Shown piece after piece: positions 4,034 through 45,305 of a stretch of DNA of 45,305 nucleotides. The position numbers were made by a program, and so were the translations under genes. The stretch is from Escherichia virus TH11. The notes beneath the pieces were generated by a model, which did not search any database, was not told where the DNA came from, and saw only the letters and a program-made list of their open reading frames with translations. Where the stretch lies: sequence record MT446389.1. The stretch is one strand, 5' to 3'. Positions within the stretch are counted from its first letter, which is position 1; each line of letters starts with the position of its first letter.

Positions 4034-4585
4034 ATGGCAGAAATTAAAGTTAAGGGCCGACGCGCCAAACTGGACGGACGAGTAGCAGTAACCCCGCGCC
4101 GTAAACCAGGCGAGCAAACCGAGCATACCAATCTCGGACCTGAAATCGAGTACGGCAAGCGCCGTAAAGGCGGCAAATGTGGACGCCCTACTGACTACAG
4201 ATCCGTTTACTGCGACCAGCTTCGCCGCTATTTTGCCGACGCCGACGCCTGGCAGGTCAACTACTCCGATAAAGGCGCTGCGCAAGTAATCCCCCGCAAC
4301 AAAATGCCAACCTTCGGTCGTTTTGCCGCAGAAATTGGCGTAGGCGTTGCCTGCCTGTACCGCTGGGCGCGCGCGCATGAGGAGTTCGCCGAGGCGATGG
4401 CGGACGCTATGGAGCTACAGAAAACTTTCCTGATGGAAGCCGGTGGCGTGACCATCGCGGCAGGCTTCGCTACGTTCCTGCTTAAGGCAAACCACGGCGT
4501 CCGCGACGATGTGCCGCTGGATGACGACGAAGATGATAACGGCGACGTCGTAGTGGAACCTACCGGCAAAGGCCAGGGTGAATAA
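4034..4585 (+). CDS. terminase small subunit
   Basis: Directly upstream of and coupled to large terminase (ATG overlaps stop); basic N-terminus, GRPTDY motif, acidic C-tail; start trimmed to MAEIKVK. Confidence 0.5.
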   Translation: MAEIKVKGRRAKLDGRVAVTPRRKPGEQTEHTNLGPEIEYGKRRKGGKCGRPTDYRSVYCDQLRRYFADADAWQVNYSDKGAAQVIPRNKMPTFGRFAAEIGVGVACLYRWARAHEEFAEAMADAMELQKTFLMEAGGVTIAAGFATFLLKANHGVRDDVPLDDDEDDNGDVVVEPTGKGQGE

Positions 4586-9823: not shown

Positions 9824-9846
9824 TGCAACCAATATATGCAACCAAT
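9824..9846. promoter_or_regulatory. tandem TGCAACCAAT motifs in divergent intergenic region
   Basis: Two copies 13 bp apart between minus gene 9037..9801 and plus gene 9950..10651. Confidence 0.45.
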
Positions 9847-9949
9847 ACGCGGATTGCAAGCGAATTTTGCGATTATTTTTATCACTGATAATATTAGAGG
9901 CGTGAAGTCGAGCGGGTGGCCCGCTCTGCCACAATCCCAGGGGGATAGC

Positions 9950-15108: not shown

Positions 15109-15422
15109 TTGAGGCGGCGCGACGCTTTTATGGTCCGCCGCCACCCTCCGAAGATTTAGCCGCAAGTTTATGGGGTGCGGCCCCCGAAGATGTTTGTCCG
15201 CCTGTTGCGCTATGGCCCGACAACGCGAAGATAGTCGCAGTCTTCACAGATTGCGCCACGCAATGGCGCACCGGATTTGGTGGCGCATACGGCATCGACT
15301 ACGGCGTGCTGGAGTGGTTATTTAAGATGCACGGTATCGAAAACGAGCAGCGCGCGTTTAAAGATATCAAGCTAATGGAACGAATCGCGCTTGATGAGAT
15401 GGCGCAGCAGAACCCCGCATAA
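14731..15422 (+). CDS. tail assembly chaperone GT-like fusion via -1 frameshift
   Basis: -1 frame stays open with no start codon from 15099 to stop at 15420-15422 (about 107 codons); slippery A_AAA_AAC at 15099-15105. Confidence 0.55.
15099..15142 (+). promoter_or_regulatory. programmed -1 frameshift signal
   Basis: Heptamer AAAAAAC in X_XXY_YYZ register; 7-bp stem GGCGGCG/CGCCGCC starting about 8 nt downstream. Confidence 0.5.
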
Positions 15423-15780
15423 TGCAGCGGGACGTCCCGTTTTGTCCCGCCTCTGTAAAACTGCATACCTACTCACACCCACTGCATAAACCAAAAACGG
15501 GACAAACGGGACGTCCCGATCTGTCCCGCCATGTAAATGTGCATACCTATTCAGATTTCGTGCATAAAGTAAGCGGGACAAAAAGCGGGACAAACAAGGA
15601 GCGGGACAAAGCGGGACAGCACCCCGTCCCCGCCAGTGCTGCCGCGGGTTGCGGCCGATCGGGACAAGCGGGACAAACCCCAGTCTTTCAGACTAGACGG
15701 GGGTCAATGGCCCCCCTCGTCTGAGACTGAATAAGGTTTGTTTTAAATTCGCTGATACAATGTCAATCGGCAACTGCATA
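15266..15780. repeat. tandem duplication unit 1 (515 bp)
   Basis: Identical to 15781-16295; track ORFs at +515 offset give identical translations; both junctions read directly. Confidence 0.85.
15426..15729. repeat. GCGGGACAAA repeat array copy 1 with terminal stem-loop
   Basis: At least 12 GGGAC(A/G) cores in both orientations, two GCGGGACGTCCCG palindromes, repeated TGCATACCTAYTCA and TGCATAAA, then GC-rich hairpin at 15680-15729. Confidence 0.75.
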
Positions 15781-16295
15781 GCGCACCGGATTTGGTGGCG
15801 CATACGGCATCGACTACGGCGTGCTGGAGTGGTTATTTAAGATGCACGGTATCGAAAACGAGCAGCGCGCGTTTAAAGATATCAAGCTAATGGAACGAAT
15901 CGCGCTTGATGAGATGGCGCAGCAGAACCCCGCATAATGCAGCGGGACGTCCCGTTTTGTCCCGCCTCTGTAAAACTGCATACCTACTCACACCCACTGC
16001 ATAAACCAAAAACGGGACAAACGGGACGTCCCGATCTGTCCCGCCATGTAAATGTGCATACCTATTCAGATTTCGTGCATAAAGTAAGCGGGACAAAAAG
16101 CGGGACAAACAAGGAGCGGGACAAAGCGGGACAGCACCCCGTCCCCGCCAGTGCTGCCGCGGGTTGCGGCCGATCGGGACAAGCGGGACAAACCCCAGTC
16201 TTTCAGACTAGACGGGGGTCAATGGCCCCCCTCGTCTGAGACTGAATAAGGTTTGTTTTAAATTCGCTGATACAATGTCAATCGGCAACTGCATA
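15781..16295. repeat. tandem duplication unit 2 (515 bp)
   Basis: Perfect copy of 15266-15780; junction caactgcata|gcgcaccgga. Confidence 0.85.
15941..16244. repeat. GCGGGACAAA repeat array copy 2
   Basis: Identical to 15426-15729 as part of the 515-bp duplication. Confidence 0.75.
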
Positions 16296-25172: not shown

Positions 25173-25197
25173 CGAAGGGGCCATATGGCCCCTTTTA
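25173..25197. terminator. bidirectional hairpin terminator
   Basis: Palindrome aaggggccatatggcccctt between convergent genes. Confidence 0.55.
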
Positions 25198-28291: not shown

Positions 28292-28316
28292 GAAGGGGCC
28301 ATACGGCCCCTTTTTA
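28292..28316. terminator. bidirectional hairpin terminator
   Basis: aaggggcc-atac-ggcccctt followed by TTTTT; between convergent genes. Confidence 0.55.
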
Positions 28317-31446: not shown

Positions 31447-31473
31447 TGCAACCAATATGATTATGCAACCAAT
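31447..31473. promoter_or_regulatory. tandem TGCAACCAAT motifs, candidate leftward promoter
   Basis: Minus strand reads TTGCAT, 17 nt, TATCTT upstream of gene starting 31392. Confidence 0.45.
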
Positions 31474-34406: not shown

Positions 34407-34685
34407 CTACGCGACCAATTCAGCAACCAATAAATCACAGTCGGCTATGTTGTCGATAACGCGAACGTCCGCACCGCGGCGGGCCATTCGTTCATGTTCA
34501 CGTACCTGGTGCGGCTTCGGTTTCCCACCTGGGCGCTTCACTTCGACGAACACTATTTTGCCGTTGATGATAATAATCAGGTCGGGCGCACCTGCGCGCC
34601 CCTCCCATGCCAGTTTTCGGCAGAATCCCCCAACGGCTTTAACCAGCTTCATCAGGTGACTTTGTATCTTGCCTTCTGGTGTCAT
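34407..34685 (-). CDS. VRR-NUC domain nuclease
   Basis: 92 aa with PD-(D/E)XK core GAPDLIII...VFVEVKRPGGKP...Q. Confidence 0.7.
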   Translation of the reverse strand: MTPEGKIQSHLMKLVKAVGGFCRKLAWEGRAGAPDLIIIINGKIVFVEVKRPGGKPKPHQVREHERMARRGADVRVIDNIADCDLLVAELVA

Positions 34686-41475: not shown

Positions 41476-41805
41476 ATGAATGTAAACGACGCAATCGAAA
41501 TGTTAACGAAGACTGTTTGCAGTGAGACAAGCCGGTCGTGGGCATACACCGATGCCGTGGGGGCTGTGTTATTTGAAATCGAACGACTGCGGCTTACCGA
41601 AAAAGAATTGCGCGCCAGGCTGGAACTACTCAACGGTACAGCAGCAAGCAAGCTGCAAAAACACAATGAAGAAATGGAAGAATACAAAAAGCAGGTTATC
41701 CGTTTGCGCGCCGAGGGTAAATCATGGGCGATGATTGCCGAGTTGACCGGGATTAATCAGAGCACAGTGCGCTCCTGGGTACGCAATAATAAAACTTCTA
41801 AGTAA
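41476..41805 (+). CDS. HTH DNA-binding regulator
   Basis: 109 aa; C-terminal KSWAMIAELTGINQSTVRSWV is a helix-turn-helix; first gene of rightward operon. Confidence 0.55.
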   Translation: MNVNDAIEMLTKTVCSETSRSWAYTDAVGAVLFEIERLRLTEKELRARLELLNGTAASKLQKHNEEMEEYKKQVIRLRAEGKSWAMIAELTGINQSTVRSWVRNNKTSK

Positions 41806-41815
41806 GGCCACGGCA

Positions 41816-44080
41816 ATGAGCTTGATTAAATTCGCTGTAACAAAACCCGCTAAAAAAGGCGAAAAAGCCAGGGCGGAAAACTTCCAGATGACGACCGATG
41901 AGTTTTTCGAATTTATCAAAGATGCGAAAGAAATCTCCTCGGTGCATATCAACAAGACGGAAGATAAAGCCGAGTATGCGCGCCGCAAGCGTAAGGCCGA
42001 TGGCATCGTGGCGTATACCAGTGACGGATTGCGTCGTAAGACCAGTGCGGTGGACCGCTCGATCCTGTTCTTTGATATTGACCGCACCGACACCCGCACC
42101 CTGCGCCGCTGCCGTAAGGCGTTCATCGACGCGGGACTGGAACATGTATTTCACACCACAACCGGCGACCGCCACCCGCTGAAAGGTGGCACGCGTTGCG
42201 CTCGTTTCCTGGTGCTCACCGACAAGCCTGTACCGGCGGAAGACCTAGGCCGCGTACAGTATGCACTGTTACACCAACTGGGCCTGTCAGATGTGGACTT
42301 CGATGATTGTACGAAAGACACAAACCGCCTTATGTACCTACCACACCAGCAGTCCGTTGTTAAGTGTCACTACGGCAAACGTGCCCGCGTCCGTCGTCTG
42401 CTTCGCCTGGCGGATAAGCTGGGAGTGGAAAAAGAGGAAGTACGACGCGAACTGACCCAGGGCGATGACGGCGTGGCTGACGGTATTCTGGATTGGTGCT
42501 TCCAGGCGGGATTCGAACCGCTGTCGTCCGGTCGTGGTTATGAAGTGCCATGCCCGAACGAACACCTGCACAGTGGTGAAGGGTCCACCGCTATCATGGT
42601 TAAGGATGGCGAGATCCGTTTCAAGTGTATGCATACCGGCAACGAGTGTTGCTCGGAGCTGAACAGACACCAGCACCTGGCGCTACGTCTTATCGGGATC
42701 CCGGACCACCTGAACGTCGAACCGCACAACATGTCACGTAAGCAAATCGCCGCCATCCTTCCAGGACTGGACGACGAGGAAGTGGAATCGTGCTATGCGC
42801 ATATCGTTGATGCGGTCGGAGACGGCGACGAGTACGGCGGATGTACAGATGCAGACCTGGACAACGAGCCGGTTGCGCTGTTCAGTAAGCACGACCCGAT
42901 CATCGAGGGGCTGATTAACTTCAAATCGACCTGGTATCTTGCTGGCGAGTCGAACATCGGTAAATCGTTCTACGTGCTGGGCCAGATGGCGTCAGTATCT
43001 GCCGGTATTCCGTTCGGCGGCGCGAAGGTCGTCCAGTGCCACAACTTCTATTTCGACGCGGAAGGTGGTGAAGCCTCCAACCAGCGTAAGGAAGCATTGC
43101 AGATCAAATATGAGCACGACCTGGACAAGCTGCACATTATCGATCTGCAGTCACGCGGCTGGGATATCACCAGCAAATCCGGCTTGCGTGAAGTTATCAG
43201 CTTTATCAACCGCACCGCTAACGGCGAGCCGGTTGGCCTGGTGGCGTTCGACTCACTCAACCAGACTGTCGCGTTGCGGTCAGCCGATGCTAAACCGTTC
43301 GACGAGAACAACGCCAGCGATATGGGCGAAGTGGTCAAAGCGCTGAAGGCTATTGCGGAAAACACAGGCGGCAGTGCGGGAGTCATCCACCACCCGGCGA
43401 AAGGTGCAAACGGCAGCAGATCTCCCCGCGGGTCCGGCGCGCTGCATGGTGCTGTCGATTCCGCGTTCTTCCTGGAGCAACCGGACGACAATCAGCCGGG
43501 CCAATTGAACCTGTACCATGAGAAGGCACGTAACGGCATCAAGCAAGCGCCGCGCGGCTTCGTCCTGCTTAAGTGCAAGGTTAAGGTGGATCTCCGCAAG
43601 TCAGAGGCGTTCGAATCGCACCAGTCCACCAGCACCGGGCCTGACTTCGGTGATGTGGTTGCAGGATGGGACGTCAAGCCGATCGCATCAACGCCACGCG
43701 ACGAGACTCTTTACCTCGTACCTGTCGCCCTGGCACCGTTCGCTATTGAGCAGGCGAAGGCCGCGGGTAAGGCAGCAGTTAAGGAAGAGAACCCCGCAGG
43801 ACCGCGCAACGAAAAAGAGAAAGTGCTTTATGCGGCGCTGGAAAAACTGATGGAAGATAACCCGGACCATACCGGATTCAGTAAATCGGCAATCGTCCGC
43901 CAGGCTGGACTTGCGAAAGGTGGCACATCGACGAAGGCAATAGACGATATGGTCGAGCGCGGCGTGCTCGGTTTCTATACAGATCCGCACACCGGGGCCA
44001 TCTATGGGTCATCGAATATCGTCATCAAAACGAATATACCCATCACGCTTTCGGCGACCGATGATGATTTAAAAGATTAA
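41816..44080 (+). CDS. bifunctional primase-polymerase / helicase
   Basis: N-terminal AEP-like FFDIDRTD, Cys/His zinc cluster, C-terminal Walker A AGESNIGKS and Walker B LVAFDSL. Confidence 0.8.
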   Translation: MSLIKFAVTKPAKKGEKARAENFQMTTDEFFEFIKDAKEISSVHINKTEDKAEYARRKRKADGIVAYTSDGLRRKTSAVDRSILFFDIDRTDTRTLRRCRKAFIDAGLEHVFHTTTGDRHPLKGGTRCARFLVLTDKPVPAEDLGRVQYALLHQLGLSDVDFDDCTKDTNRLMYLPHQQSVVKCHYGKRARVRRLLRLADKLGVEKEEVRRELTQGDDGVADGILDWCFQAGFEPLSSGRGYEVPCPNEHLHSGEGSTAIMVKDGEIRFKCMHTGNECCSELNRHQHLALRLIGIPDHLNVEPHNMSRKQIAAILPGLDDEEVESCYAHIVDAVGDGDEYGGCTDADLDNEPVALFSKHDPIIEGLINFKSTWYLAGESNIGKSFYVLGQMASVSAGIPFGGAKVVQCHNFYFDAEGGEASNQRKEALQIKYEHDLDKLHIIDLQSRGWDITSKSGLREVISFINRTANGEPVGLVAFDSLNQTVALRSADAKPFDENNASDMGEVVKALKAIAENTGGSAGVIHHPAKGANGSRSPRGSGALHGAVDSAFFLEQPDDNQPGQLNLYHEKARNGIKQAPRGFVLLKCKVKVDLRKSEAFESHQSTSTGPDFGDVVAGWDVKPIASTPRDETLYLVPVALAPFAIEQAKAAGKAAVKEENPAGPRNEKEKVLYAALEKLMEDNPDHTGFSKSAIVRQAGLAKGGTSTKAIDDMVERGVLGFYTDPHTGAIYGSSNIVIKTNIPITLSATDDDLKD

Positions 44081-44155
44081 ATTTTGCGCGCATTGGTTGC
44101 CGATATGGGAATTCCCATATCGCTAGAAGATTAAATTTTGCGCGCATTGGTTGCC
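44073..44155. repeat. direct repeat - palindrome - direct repeat element
   Basis: 29-bp direct repeat at 44073-44101 and 44127-44155 flanking perfect 20-bp palindrome gatatgggaattcccatatc at 44102-44121. Confidence 0.7.
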
Positions 44156-44213
44156 ATTTTGAGTGTTTTTATCTGGTCGTATTGGTTGCCGTGTAGTGTA
44201 AATATAGTGAATA

Positions 44214-44402
44214 GTTATGCAGTTTTATTGCATAAAGTAAGCGGGACAAAAAGCGGGACAAACAAGGGGCGGGACAAAGCGGGACAGCACCCCTGTCCCA
44301 CCCCGGATGACGCGGCCTGGAGAGGAGCGGGACAGGCGGGACAACCCCCAGTCTTTCAGACTAGACGGGGGGTCAATGGCCCCCCTCGTCTGAGACTGAA
44401 TA
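44214..44402. repeat. GCGGGACAAA repeat array copy 3 with terminal stem-loop
   Basis: Paralogue of 15565-15735 with a few substitutions; preceded by AT-rich stretch; hairpin at 44350-44398. Confidence 0.7.
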
Positions 44403-44543
44403 AAATCCGGGGATTGCAAAATACACGGCAGCATGATGCGAAGTGCGGTCGAGGATGAACTAGGCAACCAATGCGAGATGCATTATGCTGAGTGAAAAAT
44501 GCAGTTTGCAGTCACAGCAGATAGCGATCAACTTTTTCATGCG

Positions 44544-44594
44544 CATGTTTGATATTGGTTGCATTCAACCCGGCACCTGGCTATATTGGTTGCG
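44544..44594. promoter_or_regulatory. ATTGGTTGC motif pair upstream of gene at 44616
   Basis: ATTGGTTGCA at 44544-44553 and ATTGGTTGC at 44584-44592; reverse-orientation copy near 44466. Confidence 0.4.
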
Positions 44595-44615
44595 CACCAA
44601 CATGAGGACTGAACA

Positions 44616-44906
44616 ATGAGAGCGTTAATCTGGAATTACACAATGGCAGTGGCAAAACCGGTCGAAGCGAGATATACCAACGGCAGAGCACCGTGGGAGC
44701 GCCTGGTAGCTCCGACCTGGTTTGCGGTCATGGATGCGACCGCGGGCATGGAAGACCCCGAGCCGTTGCGCGCGGCTATCAGGGCTTACGCGCTTGCATT
44801 TGCCCGTGAACGCCTGGCCTATCGCTTCGGTATTGGCGATAAGGCAGTGACAAACGTCGCCCGGATTAAAGCCCAGCGCGAACTATTCTCCAAGCTTGCG
44901 AAATAA
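44616..44906 (+). CDS. hypothetical protein
   Basis: 96-aa ORF with RBS GAGGA. Confidence 0.45.
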   Translation: MRALIWNYTMAVAKPVEARYTNGRAPWERLVAPTWFAVMDATAGMEDPEPLRAAIRAYALAFARERLAYRFGIGDKAVTNVARIKAQRELFSKLAK

Positions 44907-44915
44907 GGGGCCAAA

Positions 44916-45185
44916 ATGAGCCGTAGGCGCGCTAAACAGCTTTCCTGGCATATCCCCCTGCATTGCATACGAATATGGGCTGAGAATGCGGTTGAGGGCG
45001 AATCTGTATTCTGGTGCTATCGCGATGATGTGAAGCCGTTGACGCAGACTCGCTACTTGCACCAGTTCGCAGCACAACACGATTTCAGGGTGCGTACTTC
45101 CTTGCAACCAATTGGAATACGTATTACATTACGCCGGAAGCCCGCCGTTGAGCGGGTAGGCAAACACTGGAGACTGAGCAAATGA
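44916..45185 (+). CDS. hypothetical protein
   Basis: 89-aa ORF; stop overlaps next ATG. Confidence 0.4.
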   Translation: MSRRRAKQLSWHIPLHCIRIWAENAVEGESVFWCYRDDVKPLTQTRYLHQFAAQHDFRVRTSLQPIGIRITLRRKPAVERVGKHWRLSK

Positions 45186-45305
45186 CACCAGCACTAATGG
45201 CGGGATTCTCGCAGAAGTTTATTTCTGTTGATGCCTGCATAGCAGATTATGAGATGGACGGCATCGCTACTGTATGCGATGGCGACACGAAAACTGCCGA
45301 TGAGA
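45182..45305 (+). CDS. hypothetical protein, 5' fragment truncated by window end
   Basis: ATG at 45182 overlapping upstream stop; open to end of window. Confidence 0.3.
   Translation, partial: MTPALMAGFSQKFISVDACIADYEMDGIATVCDGDTKTADE

Follow-up and report, generated by a model that had tools for sequence, protein, structure and literature searches.

The genome of Escherichia virus TH11, a Dhillonvirus (sequence record MT446389.1; 45,305 nucleotides, all of which were analyzed and are here called the window), carries a direct repeat, a palindrome, and a second copy of the repeat at the end of its helicase-primase gene. We propose that this structure is a dispensable module of 54 nucleotides (nt) that varies in copy number, rather than a dedicated origin or operator, and that it was captured by templated insertion and later lost or expanded in different relatives, a reading to which we assign a probability of about 0.6. 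The description on which this reading builds is much firmer, and we hold with high confidence that the module combines a foreign 21-nt hairpin with a 33-nt local duplication, that it is dispensable and unstable, and that its box is drawn from a genus-wide regulatory motif. For the phage locus itself the interest is moderate; it is higher for the link to a palindrome that is maintained, irrespective of reading frame, in KilA-N genes.

Structure of the 54-nt unit

The 29-nt sequence AAGATTAAATTTTGCGCGCATTGGTTGCC occurs at 44073-44101 and again at 44127-44155, precisely where a first-pass annotation of this DNA had placed it, and it was matched in 0 of 100 shuffles even with 3 mismatches allowed. 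The direct repeat is in fact 33 nt long, its two plus-strand copies (44069-44101 and 44123-44155) being identical at 31 of 33 positions, with 2 mismatches. Copy 1 opens with the final four codons of the helicase-primase gene, stop included (44069-44080; TTA AAA GAT TAA, or L-K-D-stop), which bears out the earlier observation that the first repeat overlaps the stop codon, and continues through a spacer into a first ATTGGTTGCC box (44092-44101). Copy 2 holds a non-coding duplicate of the gene end and a second such box (44146-44155). The shorter motif said to lie in both repeats is present as ATTGGTTGC at 44092 and 44146. A third ATTGGTTGCC box on the plus strand (44181-44190) is kept in every Dhillonvirus examined, including those without the module.

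Between the repeats lies a unique segment of 21 nt (44102-44122), giving a period of 54. The 20-nt palindrome GATATGGGAATTCCCATATC is single and stands at 44102-44121, as first claimed, but the full dyad is larger, extending over 22 perfect base pairs (bp) as CGATATGGGAATTCCCATATCG (44101-44122). It is the longest perfect palindrome of the window, and palindromes of at least 22 bp arose in 3 of 200 mononucleotide shuffles. The dyad folds into a 9-bp stem with an AAUU loop, positioned 21 nt past the helicase-primase stop codon; the stability of this hairpin has a z score of -3.45 in its RNA context, and as DNA it reaches -8.2 kcal/mol (z = -3.8).

Absence and amplification in related phages

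The interval 43800-44700 is 100% identical to that of Escherichia virus TH13 and 88-96% identical to that of ~150 further Dhillonviruses, and the locus was collected from ~25 relatives for comparison of alleles. In a census of 60 evenly spaced records out of 156 matching ones, in which some phages are represented in both GenBank and RefSeq, the module is present in 30 (TH13, McMelon, CS16, and Bas84 are examples of its bearers) and absent in 25; three records have arrays, and Ioannina and EP23 are each unique. Module-less alleles have one repeat and no palindrome, with ATTGGTTGCC joined directly to ATTTTGAG, and are exactly 54 nt shorter. They are found, for instance, in the type phage HK578, EK99P-1, SSL-2009a, and JL1, all of which encode the same helicase-primase. 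EP23 additionally lacks the first box, and Ioannina, a divergent member, keeps both repeats around a palindrome reduced to AATATGG (7 nt). The arrays consist of 5.1 copies of a 53-nt unit (96% match) in Teewinot and of 4.6 copies of a 54-nt unit in SM_S24, with recombinant junctions at TGGG microhomology. Since every "spacer" in these two arrays is identical, they reflect tandem amplification and not serial acquisition. Across the genus, the number of units is 0, 1, 2, or ~5.

Change of copy number by whole units among close relatives is the behavior of tandem repeats of the minisatellite type. Empty-site alleles with exact boundaries, as expected of a transposable element, are likewise found at this locus; they are not diagnostic of transposition, because deletion mediated by the repeats predicts the same alleles. 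The two gene ends also differ in the way they vary among relatives: the first 12 nt of copy 1 show synonymous variation only (CTG/TTA/CTT/CTA AAA GAT/GAC TAA), whereas those of copy 2 drift freely (CTAAACGGTTAA, CTAAAATGTTAA, CTAGACGATTAA), which identifies copy 2 as the non-coding duplicate of the gene end. In neighbor-joining trees of the flanks, the module-present and module-absent states are interspersed, and an outgroup pair comprises one allele derived from the module and one empty allele. We conclude from these alleles that the module is old, dispensable, and unstable.

A palindrome maintained in KilA-N genes

The exact 20-mer is found in >120 IMG/VR contigs, in ~25 unrelated contexts among the matches listed. 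Many copies lie in frame within KilA-N genes (family identity was taken from record annotations and a hidden Markov model), where they encode D-M-G-I-P-I-S, ~20 codons before a G-T-W-x-H motif. The Dhillonvirus palindrome is identical at 20 of 20 positions to the commonest KilA-N variant, and the identity extends to 23 nt (CCGATATGGGAATTCCCATATCG) with our loci L180 and L189; the shared dyad measures 20-22 nt around a GGAATTCC core, to which the Dhillonvirus copy conforms. In the KilA-N loci surveyed (L126-L205, L228-L241, L244, L246, and L248), many genes have the dyad at one fixed position; their sources include phages of Enterobacteria and Bacteroides and, for some contigs, metagenome-assembled genomes of giant viruses.

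Covariation was assessed on 80 KilA-N loci selected by peptide pattern (D-M-G-I-P-I-S in any codons, or Q-G-T-W-x-H), which yielded 40 distinct sequences. In these, 91.4% of the cells are paired, and double-sided changes are seen in 6 of the 9 pairs. Cells with such changes number 35, versus 10.1 +/- 2.4 after shuffling (0 of 500 shuffles were as high), and the covariation score is 0.301, versus at most 0.081 for slid registers. All six variants with paired changes (GATGCGGGAATTCCCGCATC, GAAACGGGAATTCCCGTTTC, GAAACGGGATATCCCGTTTC, GATACCGGAATTCCGGTATC, GATGTCGGAATTCCGACATC, and GAAGCGGGAATTCCCGCTTC) are fully self-complementary. The dyad also occurs at the homologous place in another frame, namely, in the KilA-N homologues L229 and L231 (R-N-G-N-S-R-F), in Salmonella phage Oslo (R-Y-G-K-I-P-Y, with an 8-bp covarying stem), and, partly decayed, in gp73 of HK022; overall it is read in two phases, D-M-G-I-P-I-S and R-N/Y-G-N-S-R/H-F. 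The compensatory changes and the different reading frames together indicate that the constraint acts on the nucleic acid and not on the peptide. The dyad is not universal in the family: among nine annotated KilA-N genes selected by protein, three have a strong dyad, one or two a weak one, and the rest none. HK022 Roi, which reportedly binds a site within its own gene, was dropped as a parallel, its translation, read by eye, being without the KilA-N motifs of this subfamily.

In some KilA-N genes (L099, L068, and L241), the unit that encodes the hairpin has undergone two or three tandem duplications (e.g., DMGIPIPGISSLKSDMGIPIS), which indicates that the dyad promotes local duplication in coding DNA too and echoes the Teewinot arrays. 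Rfam returned nothing over the palindrome, at gathering thresholds for the whole window and at E-value thresholds for 43900-44700 and the KilA-N and hokD loci, and the searchable literature contained no description of the box, the palindrome, Dhillonvirus promoters, or a KilA-N stem-loop. As far as these searches show, the KilA-N-embedded dyad is undescribed, which is no proof of novelty.

Orphan copies outside KilA-N genes

The Dhillonvirus palindrome lies between genes, and searches of the window and of Dhillonvirus records gave no KilA-N homologue. In a phage without a KilA-N gene it is thus an orphan copy, foreign to the phage and identical to the KilA-N variant. Such copies are common elsewhere. 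The most frequent "non-coding" context is upstream of hokD in lambdoid prophages, and the 160-nt hokD-upstream region that holds the palindrome is covered to at least 80% in 577 of 5426 Escherichia coli genomes. Compared with the intact hok/sok-KilA-N arrangement (L158), ~500 nt are deleted there and only 41-44 nt around the dyad are left, which marks this context as the remnant of a KilA-N gene. At least three deletion contexts (types L007, L008, and L020) all keep the dyad, which at hokD may be a hotspot for deletion end points or may be functionally kept. In the prophage locus L125, the palindrome (~4071-4090) lies ~50 nt upstream of the sok/hok RNA region and ~60 nt before the inferred start of the hokD mRNA. 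Other orphans with clean dyads follow a capsid gene by 20 nt or another open reading frame (ORF) by 5 nt, lie between a cI-like gene and an O-like replication gene, come after rusA, or adjoin integrases; L021, L030, L031, L038, and L118 have orphan copies of this kind. Pairs of empty and filled sites were sought for the orphan palindromes of other phages, for which IMG/VR held too few relatives and E. coli no match.

These distributions allow a broader, more tentative interpretation, which we regard as possible and not as the probable outcome: the palindrome may be a discrete, frame-independent nucleic-acid element native to KilA-N genes, perhaps a recognition site of KilA-N proteins or a structure-specific signal for regulation or recombination, that has been copied into unrelated phages, the Dhillonvirus module being one such capture that still shows its flanking duplication, empty-site alleles, and secondary amplification. 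If true, this would be a case in which a short structured element passes from one phage genome to another. Among the DNA-binding domains of phages and large DNA viruses that are poorly understood, KilA-N is one of the most common, and the dyad, if a real cis element, would offer a testable handle on the role of the KilA-N protein or transcript.

The dispersed box

ATTGGTTGC occurs 15 times in the window versus 0.4 times expected, and its copies are scattered genome-wide, mostly 20-60 nt upstream of gene starts. In the annotated relative McMelon, most of the homologous boxes fall between genes: cor, the ligase operon, and a lar-like gene have them 55-56 nt before their starts, and others precede the operon of the helix-turn-helix (HTH) and helicase-primase genes and the first gene beyond this region. 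This strong over-representation and the position 55-56 nt upstream of several gene starts sustain the view that the motif is regulatory in type, and the ATTGGTTGCC box is one copy of a genus-wide motif tied to promoters or to regulator binding.

At six sites read from the sequence, ATTGGTTGC(A/T)N is followed, after a 16- to 17-nt spacer, by TAnnnT, and TTGCAT within the box takes the position of a -35 hexamer. Paired boxes at 44554-44593 on the plus strand form a sigma-70-like promoter (TTGCAT at 44559-44564, a 17-nt spacer, and TATATT at 44582-44587) upstream of the ORF at 44616-44906. Paired or promoter-like sites were also read at 9825-9851 (minus strand; boxes at 9825 and 9838), 26440 (minus strand), 31448-31473 (minus strand; including 31465), 34411-34431 (minus strand; including 34423), and 41277 (plus strand). 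Two of the sites have a second box, lying over the -10 element and start region and with GCRCACCAACA after it, in what looks like an operator arrangement. As a strict consensus promoter scan did not call the box-associated promoters, we infer rather than observe their sigma-70-like character. One putative promoter of the box type drives an opposite-strand gene within the head-gene module.

The same-strand copies at 44092, 44146, and 44181 end in C, not A. A sigma-70 promoter was considered for them and rejected, their -35 hexamers (TTGCCG or TTGCCA) having no acceptable -10 element at a spacing of 16-18 nt; only 11 nt separate TATAGT (44203) from the third box, and no sigma-70-like promoter was called in 43900-45305. 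These three boxes may be regulator sites rather than promoters. Directly 5' of the helicase-primase gene, the window encodes a 109-amino-acid HTH protein (41476-41805; HTH_23/sigma-70 region 4-like), which is a candidate binder of the ATTGGTTGC box.

Origin of the module and competing explanations

We favor a template switch as the origin of the module, which would have arisen once, before the sampled Dhillonviruses diverged. During replication, a switch onto the KilA-N sequence of a resident prophage would have led the polymerase to copy the hairpin alone, to stall, and to re-anneal 33 nt upstream on the phage template. Recombination, slippage, or unequal exchange between the resulting repeats would subsequently have deleted the unit precisely or expanded it into arrays, on repeated occasions. 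De novo formation of the palindrome by snap-back synthesis was rejected, since the empty-site alleles have neither arm and the consensus variant of KilA-N genes has exactly this sequence. The first-pass annotation had ranked a duplicated target site around a tiny inserted element as the less likely possibility; such an insertion suits the anatomy better than an origin or operator, given the exact-boundary empty alleles and the drift of copy 2 beside a copy 1 that changes only synonymously. It is not a conventional transposon, given the 33-nt duplication and the unflanked state of other copies.

Several points weigh against capture by template switching and subsequent loss. There is no convincing microhomology at the switch points, and integration at a staggered cut would leave the same 33-nt flanking duplication. 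The trees are compatible both with an old gain with many losses and with a gain with recombinational spread. The module persists in about half of the genus although its repeats should delete easily, and its inner stem, TATGGG/CCCATA, is almost unchanged among module-bearing phages, both of which hint at some selected function. If the module has an effect, it is probably on RNA. One plausible role for a hairpin past the helicase-primase stop, and the least certain element of our interpretation, would be protection of the mRNA 3' end or a partial block to read-through into the conserved non-coding region. The hairpin is followed by GCTAGAAGATTAAA, with no U-tract, and a consensus scan of 43900-45305 called no terminator, so that it does not qualify as an intrinsic terminator. 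The module also supplies one extra ATTGGTTGCC site.

The strongest competitor, a serious one that we nevertheless think unlikely, is a neutral scar: a functionless one-off replication error kept by drift or hitch-hiking and decaying or flickering in copy number. The dispensability and highly variable copy number of the module are what such a scar would show, one or two substitutions without compensation occur in the palindrome of 6 of ~12 sequences with the module, and neither a promoter nor a terminator is called at the locus. Yet half of the genus retains the module in the face of easy repeat-mediated loss, and CS16 and Bas84 keep it with diverged repeats, suggesting long retention. Moreover, most of the substitutions affect the loop or the outer pairs, and the same palindrome is kept in three independent KilA-N deletion remnants beside hokD.

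A clearly less probable alternative holds that the palindrome is the recognition site of KilA-N-type proteins, which would carry it inside their own genes; in Dhillonvirus it would be an orphan site read by such proteins from resident prophages or co-infecting phages, conferring either an advantage or a liability that is repeatedly lost. A KilA-N protein is the only obvious factor common to the Enterobacteria phages, Bacteroides phages, and giant-virus genomes in which the element is kept; the perfect dyad is expected of a site for a dimer, its conservation is independent of the reading frame, E. coli hosts commonly have KilA-N genes or remnants, and recurrent loss in a virulent phage would suit a liability. 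However, the half-sites vary by compensation over at least six stems, which is more like base pairing than protein recognition, several KilA-N genes are without the palindrome, and Dhillonvirus is without a KilA-N gene.

We consider it very doubtful that the module is a mobile insertion, that is, a minimal element or fragment integrated through nicks ~33 nt apart whose fill-in duplicated the target, as with transposases or with repeat duplication by Cas1-Cas2. An insert with a flanking direct duplication and matching empty sites would be its expected product, clean 20- to 22-nt units recur in unrelated intergenic DNA at many places (behind capsid genes, behind rusA, and beside integrases), and the variant GAAACGGGAATTCCCGTTTC is found outside KilA-N genes too. 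Against this, flanking direct repeats longer than chance were present at 0 of 22 other palindrome contexts, 33 nt far exceeds known transposon duplications, all "spacers" of the arrays are one and the same palindrome, the phage has no transposase or Cas gene, and the abundant prophage copies are remnants of KilA-N deletions and not insertions.

Comparably improbable is a replication origin in which the ATTGGTTGCC repeats would serve as iterons, the palindrome would be the element for initiation or unwinding, and the helicase-primase or the upstream HTH protein would use them together with an AT-rich stretch and an array of GCGGGACA. The suggestion of the first-pass annotation that 44073-44155, with the AT-rich stretch and repeat array downstream, resembles an origin or operator complex is not supported for this interval by the comparison of relatives. 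Three same-strand boxes do adjoin the helicase-primase gene within 100 bp, an AT-rich segment and a conserved array of GCGGGACA 8-mers follow downstream, the arrays and the flip-flop of a hairpin loop (see below) would suit frequent unwinding, and iteron number is often variable in genuine origins. But the palindrome and second box are absent in ~40% of the genus (25 of 60 records), including HK578, among relatives that share the replication proteins; EP23 is without the first box too. An essential origin or operator is unlikely to occupy 44069-44155, because the 54-nt unit is absent, reduced (Ioannina and EP23), or amplified (Teewinot and SM_S24) among relatives. The box stands at about a dozen promoter-proximal sites and its 15 ATTGGTTGC copies are spread over the genome, not clustered at an origin; the palindrome is common to unrelated phages with other replication systems; and the cumulative GC-skew minimum, a weak indicator here in that skew tracks gene orientation, falls at ~41 kb, not 44.1 kb, as does the lowest G+C content. 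A palindromic operator fares no better, with no promoter called at the dyad, a single palindrome copy, and no KilA-N homologue in the window; the absence of the palindrome in half of the genus was shown for the helicase-primase operon only, not for the HTH gene itself. For the phage, the outcome is mostly deflationary: the module is not to be annotated as an origin or operator, and its site is probably one at which DNA can be inserted or removed in the engineering of Dhillonviruses.

Neighboring features

The helicase-primase gene (41816-44080, plus strand; 754 amino acids), taken from the ORF list, matches Pfam AAA_25 and PHROG 3228 "replicative helicase-primase" (1136 bits), and its product is 95-100% identical across 140+ Dhillonviruses. 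Read-through of its stop codon (...LKD*ILRALVADMGIPISLED*, with the palindrome in the helicase-primase frame) was considered and rejected as a coding feature, the extension being missing in half of the genus and its likeness to KilA-N reaching no further than the palindrome. In module-less phages, the frame after the TAA stays open for ~125 codons through the GCGGGACA array (window ORF 44138-44458), and in module-bearing phages the duplicated TAA shuts it after 17 codons. The long open frame is probably an effect of composition.

The non-coding DNA downstream of the module includes a conserved element (44207-44403, plus strand) that combines GCGGGACA boxes with a long hairpin (~44340-44395) and has further copies at 15539-15734 and 16054-16249. 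It measures ~180-200 nt and is found at two distant loci in every Dhillonvirus examined, with a layout of four direct GCGGGACA boxes, inverted GTCCC boxes, a variable G+C-rich core, two more boxes, and the long hairpin (CAGTCTTTCAGACTAGACGGGGGG...CCCCCCTCGTCTGAGACTG). The CS16 record annotates a terminator within it. This element is a better candidate for an origin or regulatory hub than the module interval. At 44214-44234, the arms TTATGCA and TGCATAA enclose a 7-nt loop that reads GTTTTAT in TH13, L208, and L214 and the exact reverse complement, ATAAAAC, in L207, L212, L215, and others. This flip-flop is seen both with and without the module and suggests hairpin- or cruciform-mediated recombination in the region.

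Elsewhere in the window, a perfect 515-bp tandem duplication (15263-15777 and 15778-16292) lies between the tail-chaperone region and the tape-measure gene and includes a copy of the GCGGGACA element; most relatives are single copy there, and the second copy reflects either recent duplication or an artifact of assembly. Two near-identical 20-bp G+C-rich palindromes (AAGGGGCCATATGGCCCCTT; 25175-25194 and 28293-28312), followed by T-runs at gene ends of the tail-fiber region, resemble bidirectional terminators of the ordinary kind.

Comparison with known systems

The likeness of the module to an iteron-type origin is superficial. Such origins include the lambda ori inside gene O and the P4 ori and crr sites, which are bound by the alpha primase-helicase, and they share with the module short direct-repeat boxes beside a replication gene, an AT-rich neighbor, and a variable number of repeats. 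Unlike them, the module is dispensable, its box is promoter associated and dispersed, and the skew minimum lies elsewhere. Transposons, miniature inverted-repeat transposable elements, and acquisition by Cas1-Cas2 in clustered regularly interspaced short palindromic repeat (CRISPR) arrays likewise produce an insert with a flanking direct duplication and empty-site alleles. The Dhillonvirus case departs from these in its 33-nt duplication (rather than one of 2-14 nt at each copy), its 21-nt insert, the unduplicated state of the other copies, and the lack of an enzyme gene. With identical "spacers" in Teewinot and SM_S24, it is not a mini-CRISPR array, and the direct repeat matches what we take to be the E. 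coli type I-E CRISPR repeat at 8 of 29 positions.

An analogy may be drawn with the promoter-early stem-loop (PeSL) cassettes of T4-type phages, reportedly described by Arbiol et al. in 2010. Both join a short, conserved promoter-type motif to a stem-loop in intergenic regions of virulent phages, are repeated, and are prone to recombination with local change of content. In Dhillonvirus, however, the box recurs 15 times and the palindrome once, the other boxes having no adjacent palindrome; the stem-loop is common to unrelated phages, and no gene is shuffled between copies. With only one stem-loop in the genome, the module falls outside the PeSL definition. Enterobacteria have repetitive extragenic palindromic elements and bacterial interspersed mosaic elements, and Rickettsia has palindromic elements in frame within genes. 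Like these, the dyad is a short hairpin found after stop codons and inside coding regions at many places, with a possible role as an mRNA 3' stabilizer. It differs from them in its single copy per phage genome, in a native site at one fixed, covarying position in KilA-N genes, from which the intergenic Dhillonvirus copy itself deviates, and in having no RAYT-type transposase.

It is as a minisatellite that the module behaves. As in micro- and minisatellites, the number of units ranges from 0 to ~5 among close phage relatives, with precise loss and gain by slippage or unequal exchange. It departs from an ordinary minisatellite in its unit, which began with a foreign hairpin and takes in a regulatory box as well as a gene end.

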